Program-made: the position numbers and the translations under genes
Notes under the pieces: generated by a model
The model's input: the letters and a program-made list of their open reading frames with translations, nothing else
What the model was told of the DNA's origin: nothing
Databases searched by the model: none
In this document: positions 5,076 through 11,463 of the stretch, in pieces
Position numbering within the stretch: the first letter of the stretch is position 1
How the letters are laid out: every line of letters begins with the position of its first letter
Assembly: GCA_963827275.1 (NCBI GenBank)
Contig: CAWHAA010000007.1
Coordinates: 160,001 to 224,000, forward strand
Length of the DNA: 64,000 bases
Direction of reading: 5' to 3'
Source: an uncultured Spirochaetota bacterium
GTDB taxonomy: Bacteria; Spirochaetota; UBA4802; UBA5550

Positions 5076-5342
5076 AATCAGCTCCGGAGTAAGTGGTTTC
5101 TTTCTTAACGTTAGTAAGAAAATCAGGTCCAGTCAAGGATATTTTGCCCGCCCGGCTGCGGCGGCTTGCATTGCCCGCAGTGGGCCGCCGCGGTCTTTTT
5201 TCTGTCACCGGGCGGCTAAATCCAAAAAAACTCTTGCATTATGTCTCATTTGTTTATATAAATGCAATAATTTATTATGTCGCTAAAAACGGGCCAAATT
5301 TTACACAATTCGCTGCCCGGTTGGGACGATAATATAACAGCC

Positions 5343-7376
5343 ATGGGTTCTACAAACACATCTTTTATGAAGCGATTCTGGGCGCCGGTACTTCTTGTGT
5401 CCGTTATCTGTTTCTATCCCCCGCTTGCCTTCTCCGAGATGAAGGACATGGTCAGGTTCGAGGTGGCGAAGAAACATTACCGCCAGGGGTGCGTGCATTT
5501 CAACGCCATGCGCTATCTCGCCTCTGTCGAGTTCTTCCGCAAGGCGGTGAACGCGTATCCCGACTACTATACCGCCCGCGACCACCTTGCCCGCGCCTAC
5601 AAGCTCGCGGGGTTCACCGACGCCGCGCTGAAGGAATGGGAAAGCCTGGCGGAAGCCTCCCCGGACAATGTCGCCGTGGTGTCGAAGATCGACGGGCTCC
5701 GCTTCCAGGACGCGGCGCGCGAGAGGCCGGCGGACGGCTCGGAGTACGTTGAGTACGAGGCGTATAAATCCTCGGCGTATAACCGGTTCCGCTTCAAAAA
5801 CCCCGTCGATATAGCCGTTGACACGGACAAGAACATCTATATCACTTCCTTTTCCGAGGGATCGCTGGTCAAACTTGACACCAACGGCCGCGGCATTTTT
5901 TCCATAAAGACGTCGATCTCCGGCACCCTCTACGGTGTTGACTGCCATGCGGGCAGGGTCGCCGTTTCGGATTTCAGGGGGGACCGGGTCTATATACTGG
6001 ACTCCGGCGGGAAGACCCTGCAGAGGTTCGGCTCGAGCGGCGCCGGGGAAGGGGAGTTCCACGGGCCCGAAGGCCTCTGCTTCAATGACAGGGGCGAGCT
6101 CTATGTCGTCGATTCGGGAAACAGCCGGGTGCAGAAGTTCGATGACACGGGAAAATTCATCCTCCAGTTCGGGAAGAAGGGCGAGTACGAGGGCGAGCTT
6201 TCGAAGCCCACTGACGTCGCCGCCCTCGGCGACAGGGTATACGTCACCGATACCGGCAACCGCCGGATAGCCTGTTTTGACGATTCGGGCAATTTCATAG
6301 AGAACATTACTGGCGATGCCCTCTACTCGCCGCGCGGGATTGCGCGCCACAAGGACCTGCTCCTCGTGTCTGACGAGAAGAAGGGGCCGCTCTTCTACCG
6401 TCCCGCGGACCGGTCGCTCTCCCCCTTCGAGCCGGGGTCGGGCCTGTCGCGCGCTGTGGCGTCCGCCGTGGACAGGGACGGATATATCTACTGCCTCGAC
6501 TATAACCGGGAATCGGTGGTGCTCTTCTCGCCGGTGCAGAAGCGCTATTCCAACATGAGCCTTGAAATCACCTCGGTTGACACGGCGAGCTTCCCGGTCG
6601 TGGCGTTTTACGTCAATGTCAGGAACAGGGACGGCAGCGCGGTCTACGGGCTCGATAAAACGAATTTTACGGTCACCGAGGACGGCGCCCTCATTACGAA
6701 TATCTACAGCGATTATTTAAAGCGCCTCATGCCGTCGGTGTCGATCTCTCTCTGCGTGGACCGCTCGGACAGGGCGGAGCAGTTCCACGGCGACCTGCCC
6801 TGGACCGCGGAATTCATTCTGCAGAAGATGCGGAAGAACGACTCGATCGAGGTGATAAATTTCAACCGTGAGCCGTGGGCCGGCACGAGGTTCGACTGGA
6901 GCCGCCGGAGGACCCTCCGGGCGCTCAGGGAGCGCGAGTACGGCGGGGGAAAAAATTTCGGCAAGGCGCTCTACGGCGCGATCGGCGACCTGGTCCCGCG
7001 CCTGAACCGCCGGGGCGTCGTCATGGTCACGGACGGGAGCGTCGATGAAAATTCCTTCCGGAGCTACACCCCGGAGAACATCATCCGCTACGCGAAATCG
7101 CACTATATCCCCATCTATATTGTCTCGTTCAGGGAGCCCGATCAGCAGCTCCGGGACATAGCCGAGGAGACGGGCGGCGCAGTGTTCAGGCCGAGGGACG
7201 TGGACAGCCTCAGGTCGATCTATTCGCGCATCAAGAATTCGGAGGAATACCGGTACGTGCTGGTATACTCGACCTTCAAGCTCAAGTCGTTCCGGGGTTG
7301 GTGGTCCGACGTAAAGATAGAGGCCGACCACAAGGGACAGAAGGGCGTTGAATGGGGCGGCTATTTCGTGCCGTAG
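5343..7376 (+). CDS. Secreted TPR + NHL beta-propeller + VWA-like protein
   Basis: Signal peptide (start 5343 or 5367), TPR-like helices, NHL repeats (FHGPEGL...YVVDSGNSRVQKFD; YVTDTGNRRI), C-terminal VWA-like region (VDRS, VTDG). Confidence 0.85.
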   Translation: MGSTNTSFMKRFWAPVLLVSVICFYPPLAFSEMKDMVRFEVAKKHYRQGCVHFNAMRYLASVEFFRKAVNAYPDYYTARDHLARAYKLAGFTDAALKEWESLAEASPDNVAVVSKIDGLRFQDAARERPADGSEYVEYEAYKSSAYNRFRFKNPVDIAVDTDKNIYITSFSEGSLVKLDTNGRGIFSIKTSISGTLYGVDCHAGRVAVSDFRGDRVYILDSGGKTLQRFGSSGAGEGEFHGPEGLCFNDRGELYVVDSGNSRVQKFDDTGKFILQFGKKGEYEGELSKPTDVAALGDRVYVTDTGNRRIACFDDSGNFIENITGDALYSPRGIARHKDLLLVSDEKKGPLFYRPADRSLSPFEPGSGLSRAVASAVDRDGYIYCLDYNRESVVLFSPVQKRYSNMSLEITSVDTASFPVVAFYVNVRNRDGSAVYGLDKTNFTVTEDGALITNIYSDYLKRLMPSVSISLCVDRSDRAEQFHGDLPWTAEFILQKMRKNDSIEVINFNREPWAGTRFDWSRRRTLRALREREYGGGKNFGKALYGAIGDLVPRLNRRGVVMVTDGSVDENSFRSYTPENIIRYAKSHYIPIYIVSFREPDQQLRDIAEETGGAVFRPRDVDSLRSIYSRIKNSEEYRYVLVYSTFKLKSFRGWWSDVKIEADHKGQKGVEWGGYFVP

Positions 7377-7391
7377 GAGGCGTGGAAAGGT

Positions 7392-8015
7392 ATGCAGTTC
7401 GTACAGGAAAGCTTGATCAGCGCCCTTAAAAAGAAGGGCATATCCTCCGGCTCCGTCCTCCAGGCGATGGCGGGCGTGCCGCGCCACCTCTTCGTTTCCG
7501 AGGCCCTCCGCTTCCATGCCTACAATGACATATCGCTTCCGATCGGCCACGGCCAGACCATATCCAAGCCGTCGGTGATCGCGAAGATGGTGCAGTCCCT
7601 CGATCTGACCGGCGACGAGCGGGTCCTTGAGATCGGGACCGGCTCGGGATACCAGTCGGCGATACTCTCACGGCTCGCCGGCTCGCTGGTCACCATGGAG
7701 CGCATCGAGGAGCTGGCCAACCGCGCCAGGGGGCTCCTGTTCGGCCTGGGCTACCGCAACATCCAGTTCATCCATTCGGGCGATTTCAACGAGGTGAAGG
7801 GCGTCTTCGACGCGGTCATCGTGGCGGCGGGCGCGGACATCCTCCCGGTATCGCTGTTCGGCAAGATCGTCCCGGGCGGCAGGCTCATCATTCCGGTGGG
7901 GAGCCGGCGGGGCCACCGCATAAAGAAATTCATCGTCAAACAGAACGGCGTTGTCGTCGAGGAGGATATCGGCGAGGCCACGTTCGTGCCCTACATCATA
8001 GGCGAGACCGCGTAA
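7392..8015 (+). CDS. pcm: Protein-L-isoaspartate O-methyltransferase
   Basis: VPRHLFV, LPIGHGQTISKP, VLEIGTGSGY motifs. Confidence 0.92.
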   Translation: MQFVQESLISALKKKGISSGSVLQAMAGVPRHLFVSEALRFHAYNDISLPIGHGQTISKPSVIAKMVQSLDLTGDERVLEIGTGSGYQSAILSRLAGSLVTMERIEELANRARGLLFGLGYRNIQFIHSGDFNEVKGVFDAVIVAAGADILPVSLFGKIVPGGRLIIPVGSRRGHRIKKFIVKQNGVVVEEDIGEATFVPYIIGETA

Positions 8016-8051: not shown

Positions 8052-9103
8052 TTAAAATCCTATGTAAAATCCCCTGTTCTGCACCGCCAGCTCTTTCAGG
8101 AAGTCAACCGCCTCCGAGTCCTCCTGCTTCCTGAACTCGGTGCCGACCCCGACGGTAAATATCTTTTTATCCGACCTGTTCATGGTGCGTATCTTTTTGA
8201 GAAGGGCGTCCCTGGTAAGCTTCTTTTTCCTGAGTGGAATCCGGCTGGCCGTCGCTGAAGAGAATGATCCCCGCCGCGTCCCTGTAGGCGTCCTTCGTAA
8301 GAACGAATTCCATCGCGGTTTCCGTCGGCGTGTCGTGGTACGGCTGCAGGCAGGCGATCTTCTGGTAAAAGCCGTGCTTGTCGTTCTCTGAGAGGATATT
8401 CACCAGTTTCCCCTCGAAGTATCCGTACTTGTAGCACGTCAGCGCGGGGTTGTCGTACGCTTCGTCGCGCAGCTCGTAGCCGGCGCAGCGCTTATCGGGG
8501 CCGGGGCGTATGACGAACCCCGGGTATATCTCCCTGTTGATGTTTTCGGTGAATGCCGGGAAATAGACGATATCGATCCAGTACCGCTCGTCCATGGCGG
8601 CGATGAACATCTTCAGCGCGGCCTTCACCTGCGAGAGCCGGTCCTCCCTGTACTTGTTGTTCTCCGCGGCCATGCTCCCGGACAGGTCGATCACCATCAC
8701 GATTTTATGGGGTATCCTGAACGCGATCAGCTCGCTGGTGTCGTCGGTGGCCTTGAATAATCTCATTCTTTATCTCGTTGATTTTTTTTACGACGTTCGC
8801 GAATTGTAGCGTCGTCGAGTCGATTATCTTCGTGATGGACGAAATTTTCTCAATTGTCTGTGGATGTTCCGTTTTGTATTTTTGCAGTTCCTTCCGGGTC
8901 TCCGTCAGCTCGTTGGTCGTTTTCGCGAGCTCGTCAGATGCCGTCATCAGCTCCGATTTCACGTCCTGGCAGGCCGAAGATTCCACGCCGATCTTTTGCG
9001 TCAGCAGTATGAGCATCAATATCACGACCGCGCCGAGGGCGCCTGATATGGTGTCCAGCATGGAGATGTTAAAAGAATTTATTTCCCGGCCCGGACGTTT
9101 CAT
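8052..9103 (-). CDS. Membrane-anchored coiled-coil + VWA protein (indels near 8765 and 8235)
   Basis: N-terminal FNISMLDTISGALGAVVILM TM segment with an Asp. MIDAS DLSGS, T, FSDG. Frame-shifted tail IFTVGVG...FLKELAVQNRGFYIGF ends at TAA 8052-8054. Confidence 0.75.
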
Positions 9104-9898
9104 AGACTTTTCCGCCTGTCAAAAACATGGAGCCTGTTTATCAGATTTGTCAGCACGTACTTCCCCGCCCTGTTCAGTACGTCCTCTTCGCCTCTCTGTA
9201 CGATGTTCCATATAAACACCAGTATTGCGCTCAGGACGAGGGCGACGATCGTCGTTCCGAACGCGAAGCCGAGGTCTGCCGTGATTTTTTTAAATATCAG
9301 GACTTTTTCGGCGCCGGCCCCCATGAATTTGTTGATGTCCATCCGTCCCAGGGCGTACGCAATACCGATAACGGTCCCCATGAAGCCGAAGGTCGGTATG
9401 GCCCATACGAGATACCTGATGATCGAATAATTAAGGTCCAGGCGGTGTATGCTCAGGTCGAGATTGCTGTTCAGCACGGAGATGGTATCGCTGATCGAGT
9501 GTGATTTTGAATACTGGATGATGCTGGTGTTTATCAGGTCGGGAAGAAACGCCTCGGCCCGCACGGCGGCATTGGACACGTTGATCCTGATCGCCTCGAT
9601 GTCCTCGTCGTTTTCCAGGAGCTTCCCCGTCTTCCTCGGGAAGGAACCCCGATTTTGTAAGGAAAACATTCTCTTCGTAGGTGCAGAGCCATCGTATCCA
9701 TAATTGCCCGAGGCCAATGAAGAATAAAAGGTGCATCAGGTTTTGCAGGGAAAACGGGTACACCGGCGATGATGTTTCGCCGATCATCATGTCTCCCCAG
9801 AACGTGCCTCCGATGAAAACGGTCAGAAGGGCTATGATGACGATGGCGACAACGACTGATATGCCGAGCGCGATCCAGTTTCTGTTGGAATAACTCAT
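9100..9898 (-). CDS. MotA/TolQ/ExbB proton-channel family protein (indel near 9635)
   Basis: AIPTFGFMGTVIGI and AFGTTIVAL motifs. Start MSYSNRNW with AGAGGAG RBS. Confidence 0.85.
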
Positions 9899-9930
9899 GT
9901 GATAATCTCCTCTGCCGGGCTGATTGCCGG

Positions 9931-11463
9931 TTATTTTCTCGGAACACAATCCCCTTTTTCGTCCCTGGAATAGCCGTCCCTGCACAGACAGGTATTTTTG
10001 CGGTCCGACCAGACCTCGTTGCTCTTCGAGCATTTCTTGACGCACAGGTACTTGTTCGGCCCTTTCCAGTGCGGCACCTTCCGCTCGTCGGCCCTGCACG
10101 CGTCAGTACACGCGCCGAAGGAGTTGACGAGCTCGCAGGGTTCGCACCGGTTTGTCGCCCGGTTCAGCGAATACCCTTTTACGCACACGCAGGCGCTCCG
10201 GTCGGAGTTCCATTGCTCGTGCTCACGGCAGTCGCAGTAGCCGTATTCGTTTATTATACCGCGCCGCGCGGCGCATTCGGCCGTAAGCTTCTCCCGTTTC
10301 TTCTGCTGCACCGCGTGTTCCCGTTCCCAGGTCTCTTTCTGTTTTTTAAATTCCTCGAACTCCCTGTTGAGCTCCGCCTGCTTTTTCGCGACTATTTTTT
10401 CCTCGGTCTTCCTGGCTTCGCCCGCAAGCTTTTCCCGGATGACGGTTTTGGCGTCGTCGAGCTCCTTCTGCTTCTTGTTCAGCTCGGTCTCCCTGTCGTC
10501 GAGCTTCTTCTTCGCGATATTCAGCTGGTCCTTTGTCACGGTGAGCTCTGATCTCGTGCTTTCCAGCTCTTTTTTCACCCCGCCCAGCTGGTCCCTGGCG
10601 CTCAAGAGCTTCCCCCTCGTGTCGGAGAGCTCGTTCACGGCGGTGTCGAGGTTTTCCCTGGTGCCGGCAAGCTCTGACCTGGTCCCTTCCAGCTCGTTCC
10701 GCGCCTTCGCGAGGTTGTTCGATGCCGCGTTGAGCTCGTCCCGCGCCGCGCTCAGCCTCCCCTTCGTCGCGTCAAGCTCGCCCCTTGTTTTGTCGAGCTG
10801 CCCGGCGGTTTTATCGAGCTCGCCTTTCGTCGCGGCAAGACGGTCGCTCAACTCGCCGTACTTTTCGCGCGAGTCGTCAAGATCGTCCTGGAGGGACCTC
10901 TGCCGCGCGAGCATTTTTGAAACGCCGCCGAAGCTGTAGCGCGCCGCGATGCCCCAGTTGATGTCGAATTTCATCTTCGGCGTGATGACAAGGGCGGGGG
11001 CCGCGAAGAGCGACAGGGTCAGCGGGTATTTGGTAAAGGGCATGGACAACCCGATTGGGAGCCTGACATTGCTGTGAAAGTCCCTGTCCTGGTAGTCGTA
11101 TCCTACAAGCCCGCCGACGCCGTAGAAAAACCGGAGCTGCAGGTCCCGTGACCGGTAGAGGGTGAGGTGCTCGAAGAGCAGGTCGAGGGTAAAGACAAAG
11201 TCCCGCCTGATCGACGAACCGATGGTAAAATCTATCCCGAAAAAATCGACGATCCACCACCGCGCGTTTATGCCTGAGGGCATCCCCGCCGCGCCGCCGA
11301 TCTCGAAATTGCCTTTCTGTGAAAAGGGGTAGAGCGCCGCCATGCTGGCGGGCGCCCCCTGTCCGGGTGTTGCCTTTTTTTCATCCCCGTATGACGGCGT
11401 GACGTTCAGGCCGACAAGCATGACGGAAAGGATGATAATGCCGAGAGGTGGTTTCATGTGCAT
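9931..11463 (-). CDS. Secreted protein: putative small beta-barrel + long heptad coiled coil + Cys-rich C-terminus
   Basis: Signal peptide (start 11463 or 11457). Amphipathic strands ending WGIAARYSF. Heptads ELDKTAG/QLDKTRG/ELDATKG. 14 Cys in the last ~115 aa. Confidence 0.8.
   Translation of the reverse strand: MHMKPPLGIIILSVMLVGLNVTPSYGDEKKATPGQGAPASMAALYPFSQKGNFEIGGAAGMPSGINARWWIVDFFGIDFTIGSSIRRDFVFTLDLLFEHLTLYRSRDLQLRFFYGVGGLVGYDYQDRDFHSNVRLPIGLSMPFTKYPLTLSLFAAPALVITPKMKFDINWGIAARYSFGGVSKMLARQRSLQDDLDDSREKYGELSDRLAATKGELDKTAGQLDKTRGELDATKGRLSAARDELNAASNNLAKARNELEGTRSELAGTRENLDTAVNELSDTRGKLLSARDQLGGVKKELESTRSELTVTKDQLNIAKKKLDDRETELNKKQKELDDAKTVIREKLAGEARKTEEKIVAKKQAELNREFEEFKKQKETWEREHAVQQKKREKLTAECAARRGIINEYGYCDCREHEQWNSDRSACVCVKGYSLNRATNRCEPCELVNSFGACTDACRADERKVPHWKGPNKYLCVKKCSKSNEVWSDRKNTCLCRDGYSRDEKGDCVPRK

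Follow-up and report, generated by a model that had tools for sequence, protein, structure and literature searches.

A three-gene cassette occupies positions 8052..11463 on the minus strand of the window, a 64,000-nucleotide stretch of contig CAWHAA010000007.1 from an uncultured Spirochaetota bacterium. In gene order, it encodes an outer-membrane barrel protein with a long stalk (gene 1), a TolQ-like channel subunit (gene 2) and a protein with a membrane helix, a coiled coil and a VWA domain (gene 3). We consider it probable, although far from assured, that the products of genes 2 and 3 assemble 5:2 into an ion-driven motor, which takes hold of the gene 1 stalk at its tail with the VWA head and twists or pulls it. 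The three genes carry the corresponding domains, with conserved Asp, Thr and metal ion-dependent adhesion site (in short, MIDAS) residues, they are inherited together, and the source genome has a single Asp-helix gene. A motor with an outer-membrane partner had been proposed from the letters of the window (the original prediction); the domains, the co-inheritance and a predicted VWA-tail contact speak for that proposal, while the action of the motor on the stalk is something that we infer.

Co-inheritance and parts of the cassette

The linkage of the three genes is far beyond chance, because their order is kept in 17 of 17 spirochaete loci (21 loci were found in all) while the flanks vary, falling into 12 unrelated groups among 16 upstream and 12 among 17 downstream; no further partner co-inherited in these flanks was found. 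When 401 genomes of the phylum were sampled, gene 3 turned up at full length in 16 besides the source genome, each of them belonging to the order of the source genome, and among 122 genomes of that order full-length gene 1 is found in 23, adjoining gene 2 in every one (the 23 include G397, in which gene 1 is split by a frameshift). Close genes 2 and 3 are present in 24 of the 122; in the extra genome (G367), the contig begins within gene 2. The gene 1 tail is confined to the 23 genomes with full-length gene 1 and is missing from two genomes with other motor types (G100 and G370). Linkage of gene 1 in relatives, on which the original prediction had made itself depend, thus holds for the loci and for the genomes of the order alike.

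In a second phylum, the motor is found in 3 of 39 genomes, where genes 2 and 3 have no adjacent gene 1 (loci L023-L025), and the same three genomes each carry a full barrel-stalk-tail orthologue of gene 1, unlinked, on another contig (L137:397-1821, L138:1492-3012 and L139:228-1703). This co-occurrence counts as about one independent event, since the genomes come from one class and two are near copies. In a tree from a quick search only, the 17 spirochaete and 3 second-phylum channel proteins group together in a single branch (SH-aLRT 100) within FHA-type relatives; the 73 rows of this tree were picked by coverage, its outgroup branches are very long, and no order of events is claimed from it. 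The next gene in L137, which overlaps the orthologue, presumably resembles a TonB-dependent receptor, to judge by a motif. An EGF-repeat lipoprotein gene in L023 (4490-5539, 140 bp upstream of the channel gene) was considered as a stand-in for gene 1 and was rejected, as it is absent from L024 and the true orthologue lies elsewhere.

Gene 2 (9100..9898; 265 aa in relatives) encodes a channel subunit of the TolQ/ExbB/MotA family. It passes the PF01618 MotA_ExbB cut-off (E 4.3e-10), and a 92-row profile of its family matches the solved TolQ structures 9avi (E 4.5e-5) and 8vlw (E 4.8e-5). The pore threonines, which align to the TolQ helices at the level of sequence, are T175 (conserved in 91/92 rows), T215 (90/92) and T216 (92/92), and the pore motif P-x-x-G-F-x-G-T is nearly invariant. 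The four other PF01618 genes of the source genome each adjoin an ExbD or MotB gene, whereas gene 2 has gene 3 alone.

Gene 3 (8052..9103; 349 aa in relatives) starts with a helix of the trans-pore type (8996..9064), in which the segment SMLDTIS at residues 14-20 holds Asp17 (codon 9055-9053), with the hydropathy peak at residues 16-34. Asp17 is invariant in 20/20 close partners, and the helix Asp is found in 73 of 74 distant matches to a profile that was itself seeded on rows picked for D or A at that position. The original prediction had described both an Asp-bearing membrane segment and a VWA domain in place of the usual periplasmic domain, and both are found. The VWA domain (8055..8720) passes the VWA_2 cut-off (E 1.9e-6), there is no ExbD match, and the model shows a VWA fold with pLDDT 86-97 per block from residue 131 on, the helix and stalk being poorly modelled alone (mostly <55). 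Foldseek matches the domain to the VWA domains of integrin I and ITIH1 (best E 2.7e-8). Its MIDAS is complete (DLSGS at 8688-8674, T258 and D284), with D139, S141, S143, T258 and D284 invariant in 20/20 rows. Each of the 23 other cassette genomes has one full-length gene 3. Because the source genome has one Asp-helix gene only, gene 3 being the sole match of the helix profile there, the shaft would be homodimeric.

Gene 1 (9931..11463) is an open frame of 510 codons that encodes a signal peptide, an outer-membrane barrel, a coiled-coil stalk and a Cys-rich tail, based on an 18-row alignment and on an AlphaFold2 model of the orthologue in locus L006 (75% identical, mean pLDDT 75.5). In this model, eight strands at about residues 50-175 are followed by long helices and then by a strand-rich tail. 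The 8-stranded barrel (residues ~50-178; 10930..11316) is OmpA/OprF-like, aligning with OprF (4rlc) over 121 residues (Z 15.0, rmsd 2.5) and with residues 3-171 of OmpA (1qjp) over 116 residues (Z 14.7, rmsd 2.0). The stalk and tail are probably periplasmic, because the barrel match stops where the periplasmic part of OmpA begins. The barrel of the window itself has no Pfam match, and of the barrel-only homologues retrieved with its profile, 5/5 tested exceed the cut-off of DUF3996 (PF13161), whose members are described as Borrelia outer-membrane proteins (PMC8409650). Stand-alone barrels of 150-200 aa akin to that of gene 1 (L131-L135, L145-L146) occur widely in the order, and the second phylum has them too.

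The heptad coiled-coil stalk (10279..10929) is 218 residues long (176-232 in relatives); stalk lengths differ by multiples of 7 in 32 of the 35 measurable homologues, out of 38 distinct ones, and the stalk is helical in the L006 model, with breaks near 246-256 and 344-346. The tail (9934..10278) has 14 Cys in 37 of the 38 distinct homologues counted, with one homologue unparsed. Its C-terminus lies 4 residues past the last Cys in 38/38, position 494 is D or E in 38/38 distinct homologues of the spirochaete type, and across homologues the stalk is much freer to vary than the tip of the tail. No homologue of the tail outside gene 1 was found in the 122 genomes of the order or in the source genome, and a structure-atlas search with a tail homologue (P0154) returned EGF-like leads only (best feature score 0.80, TM <=0.50) and no named family. 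A likeness of the tail to Pfs25 or CrmE was set aside, the Foldseek matches being weak (E 0.02 or worse), as was kinship of gene 1 with SMC, JetC, LmuB, the ZorA tail or effectors, for which matches were far below cut-offs or limited to the stalk.

Predicted contact between the VWA head and the gene 1 tail

The L006 VWA domain (residues 115-349) was folded together with the tail half of L006 gene 1 (residues 345-508), without Mg2+. The complex has an interface score (ipSAE) of 0.68 (0.70, 0.68, 0.62), while three controls gave 0.00-0.02. The benchmark mark is reached by 116 of 157 solved complexes versus 2 of 215 mismatched pairs, counts that hold only roughly here, where the alignments were our own, of 20 and 18 rows. 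The runs agree in >=96% of contacts, with partner pLDDT >=84, on an interface of 31-32 contacts between the MIDAS loops (141-143 and 255-258) plus residues 148-149 and 210-213 of the VWA domain and residues 482-508 of the tail, the last three residues included. The predicted ligand is thus the last module of the tail together with its C-terminus, which is put at the VWA metal site. Ten of the 13 interface residues of the VWA domain are invariant in the 17 spirochaete rows, compared to 87 of 220 for the whole domain; the MIDAS motif with its Gly accounts for 4 of these 10. The prediction supports binding of the gene 1 tail by the VWA head at the MIDAS.

If the tail is held at this site, its free C-terminal carboxylate would be a better candidate for the MIDAS ligand than D494, because the acidic residue at 494 is lost in the second phylum; Asp494 as a universal ligand is ruled out by K, S or T at this position in the second-phylum orthologues. 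A C-terminal carboxylate is bound by a MIDAS in the C3b-factor B and C4b-C2 complexes, the same mode as the one proposed here, but these are unrelated eukaryotic proteins and serve as an analogy only (PMC12847986). The VWA loop at 255-257 is YHD in 17/17 spirochaete rows and NWN or NFA in the second phylum, where the tail tip changes.

This change in the loop, although it follows phylogeny, is one of the reasons why we think it very unlikely that gene 1 is co-inherited merely for a shared pathway, with the VWA domain binding some other envelope molecule and the predicted contact a false pass. The near-zero controls and the fixed length of the tail tip in all 38 homologues also argue against an indirect link of this kind. 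In its favour, two of the mismatched pairs do reach the mark, close cousins of true partners can pass, and most members of the wider family lack an adjacent gene 1 (0/18 long loci).

VWA domains are known as capture adaptors for MoxR-type remodellers, and the head might hold the tail only briefly, as a dedicated chaperone or remodeller that folds, assembles, releases or turns over a stalk protein whose working partner is another. The small size of the predicted interface and the strong constraint on the tail tip relative to the stalk would fit such a role. We regard it as quite unlikely, however: a remodeller would have a single client, because no relative of the tail was found beyond gene 1 in the genomes searched, and the flanks show no co-inheritance of another partner.

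Known systems, the wider family and the genomic setting

The core of TolQ-like channel and Asp-helix-VWA protein is not a new kind of motor, because motors that combine a tolQ-like gene with trans-pore helix (TPH)-vWA genes were already proposed computationally in 2025, from synteny and AlphaFold 3 (AF3) modelling (Williams-Jones et al., PMC12204202, section 8, Fig. 4c-d). That section gives an AF3 5:2 model of one tolQ + TPH-vWA pair, describes mostly heterologous pairs, mainly from Proteobacteria and Verrucomicrobia, and names no outer-membrane target; one text supplement of the paper has no match to 'spirochaet' or 'leptospir'. The cassette shares with these motors a tolQ-like gene adjoining a vWA gene without exbD or tolR, the Asp trans-pore helix, the C-terminal vWA fold, the conserved Thr and the absence of an SHLS motif, a likeness at the level of these features. 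It differs in having a single partner gene instead of the usual heterologous pair (which PMC12204202 does not state to be required), in its occurrence in Spirochaetota and a second phylum, and in a co-inherited outer-membrane barrel-stalk protein as the predicted ligand. What is new is confined to the partner in the outer membrane and to the spirochaete form with its one partner gene. The literature searched, with subscription journals mostly outside it, holds no publication on the barrel-stalk partner, and 'TPH-vWA' occurs in it only in PMC12204202. The claim that the module is distinct from the Ton, Tol, Mot and Zorya systems therefore stands in part: the module lacks their defining features, but its core had been proposed before.

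With TolQR-TolA and ExbBD-TonB, the cassette shares a homologous channel subunit and an Asp-bearing helix, but it has no ExbD/TolR domain and no TonB or TolA, the head being borne on the shaft itself. No PF02472 or PF03544 was found in the cassette, a true Ton set lying elsewhere in the genome (L001), and TolR, TolA, TolB and Pal are all missing from the cassette; in the genome, which is 92% complete, TolB_N is unmatched and no Pal match is above the cut-off, and ten OmpA-like matches are present. A PF01618 channel with an Asp partner helix is also common to MotAB and ZorAB. The cassette differs from MotAB in that the VWA domain of gene 3 replaces the OmpA-like wall-binding domain and in having no flagellar context (the true MotAB are at L002). 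A shaft that crosses the periplasm as a dimer to an outer-membrane partner is known from the GldLM motor and GldKN of Bacteroidota, which would work alike with different families, the partner there being a lipoprotein ring and here one barrel-stalk protein; GldL and GldM families did not turn up in general Pfam and NCBIfam scans, and no directed test for them was made. Gene 1 in turn shares a barrel with a periplasmic extension, and the OmpA-like barrel fold, with the OmpA/OprF and OmpM/SlpA tethers, but it ends in a 14-Cys tail and is predicted to pair with a motor in the inner membrane and not with peptidoglycan (PMC10628300, PMC9388160). Gene 1 has no SLH or OmpA_C match, and its barrel is small, N-terminal and 8-stranded.

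The patchy, accessory distribution of the cassette and its changing flanks could suggest an anti-phage envelope sensor of the Zorya type, and the ZorA profile gives weak matches over the channel region (E 2.8e-4). We consider this highly improbable. The 265-aa gene 2 has no tail of ZorA length, gene 3 has a VWA domain for the OmpA-type wall-binding domain of ZorB and the cassette has no ZorB match. No effector is co-inherited, and the neighbours in the window are pcm, a Na/Ca exchanger and an esterase, although no systematic scan of the flanks for defence genes was made.

Gene 2 is matched by 2,462 cluster representatives at E 0.001 or better, and the wider family was surveyed through the best 80 of 587 metagenome matches (L044-L123), with neighbour profiles seeded from the same loci after Pfam scans of 90 of the 194 listed neighbours. 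This neighbourhood survey of channel and VWA pairs, which had been suggested as a check, places the distant relatives with FHA and kinase genes. Among these best 80, 64 loci could be assessed for an FHA gene, and 54 of them have one upstream of the channel gene at a distance of <=800 bp; 18 long loci contain an Asp-helix partner (16), a Ser/Thr kinase (14), a trypsin-like protein (12) or PP2C (8), but never an adjacent gene 1. Heterologous pairs of Asp-helix partners are common in the distant relatives. No FHA, kinase or phosphatase gene is found near the spirochaete cassette (0/14 long loci). Besides FHA proteins and PP2C, the L044-L123 clusters encode Ser/Thr kinases whose tails are of the FGE-sulfatase or beta-helix type, trypsin-FHA and VWA-FHA proteins, and either a single Asp-helix partner or two. 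Within the order of the source genome, L043 (G100:C57) has FHA, channel, TPH-VWA and kinase genes, and in L130 (G370:C64) a channel fused to a zinc ribbon comes before two short membrane-anchored genes that lack a Pfam match (L130:5188-7380). Of 72,556 plasmid records, one matches gene 2, from Rhizobium leguminosarum (NZ_CP125637.1:163441-164058, 41% identity), which might serve as a source of the wider family in culture.

The tight spacing of the cassette, as originally predicted, is re-found in the sequence: a 32-bp gap separates gene 1 from the start of gene 2 at 9898, genes 2 and 3 overlap in ATGA at 9100-9103, and gene 3 ends at 8052. Compared to the close relatives L006-L008, genes 2 and 3 contain three single extra bases, near 9629 in gene 2 and near 8759 and 8236 in gene 3, the removal of which gives 265 and 349 codons, as in L006. 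These are most likely assembly errors. In short-read contigs from four runs of four studies, the base at 8236 is missing in 4/4, that at ~8759 in 3/4 (the X5 contig stops there) and that at 9629 in 3/4 (the position is not covered by X3). Genes 2 and 3 are intact in the 17 spirochaete loci, and gene 3 is intact in the 23 other cassette genomes. Two-frame splits also occur in other genes of the same assembly (ExbD of L004, C4 ~113,700 and C4 ~573,350, one of the C4 genes being a kinase), and therefore indel errors are indicated. Decay of genes 2 and 3 in the source strain alone may be the cause instead, because the short-read runs may be of other strains and the local density of indels is high, with three in 1.9 kb versus 1-2 frame changes in ~26 kb of other matched genes.

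A scan for promoters and terminators gave one promoter-like site against 1.9 expected and left the cassette ends blank except for a hairpin at 11602-11580 with a poor T run, and no tRNA genes are close to the cassette. On the plus strand, convergent with the cassette, the window holds a TPR-NHL-VWA gene (5277-7376) followed by pcm (5277-8015 together). The NHL-VWA gene was rejected as a member of the cassette, being linked in 1 of 17 loci (L008 only).

Proposed mechanism and its implications

In the mechanism that we propose, five TolQ-like gene 2 subunits would ring two gene 3 Asp helices in the inner membrane, and ion flow through this assembly would drive its rotation. The VWA head, carried on a periplasmic shaft, is predicted to bind the Cys-rich tip of the stalk that hangs from the gene 1 barrel, and Mg2+ in the MIDAS may capture the free C-terminal carboxylate of the tail. 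The motor would then twist or pull the stalk, so that the outer membrane would be tensioned or repositioned. A stricter form, which is possible but which we hold as doubtful, is a minimal direct-drive machine of just three proteins, in which the Mg2+/C-terminus clamp winds or pulls the stalk with neither a TonB/TolA-type transducer nor a wall anchor.

Several observations weigh against a driven grip on the stalk. First, the complex was folded without the metal, from shallow alignments (20 and 18 rows), with orthologues in place of the window proteins and with just the tail half of gene 1 on offer. Since the MIDAS is a general ligand site, the pass may reflect a likeness to solved VWA complexes. 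In the predicted complex R507, not an acidic group, is nearest to S141/G142. All three orthologues from the second phylum have K, S or T at 494, and their tails end 5 residues past the last Cys, in Asn. Second, the cassette is accessory (23/122 genomes of the order, 3/16 others in the genus), and the three second-phylum genomes, two of them near copies within one class, may be incomplete. Third, a taut geometry is not evident, because the stalk (~33 nm at 0.15 nm per residue) and the shaft (~11 nm) together reach ~44 nm, above the usual periplasm width of 15-30 nm, and because stalk length ranges over 8 heptads with gene 3 nearly constant at 347-352 aa.

A stalk that seems longer than required and is variable in length might instead be a leash, with the same bridge working in reverse: displacement of the outer membrane would pull on the VWA head and open the channel, as a tension-gated conductance or envelope sensor. 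Stators such as MotAB are gated by a periplasmic anchor, and the distant relatives, among the best 80 of 587 matches, sit in signalling clusters with FHA genes and kinases. Nevertheless, we think that such a sensor is unlikely, as genes for FHA proteins, kinases or phosphatases are lacking around the spirochaete cassette (0/14 long loci), an output gene is not evident, and the cytoplasmic part of gene 2 is short.

If the direct-drive form is right, the cassette would amount to a bacterial rotary motor fitted with an integrin-like clutch. The TPH-vWA motors have been proposed without a target or function, and the outer-membrane partner would supply their first concrete, defined target. In most relatives, the clusters of FHA, kinase, phosphatase and protease genes are hard to dissect, whereas the spirochaete form consists of three genes with one type of partner and a specific predicted contact. 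The question of what the VWA head grips, and of whether ion flow moves it, is thus approachable with two small domains and one membrane complex.

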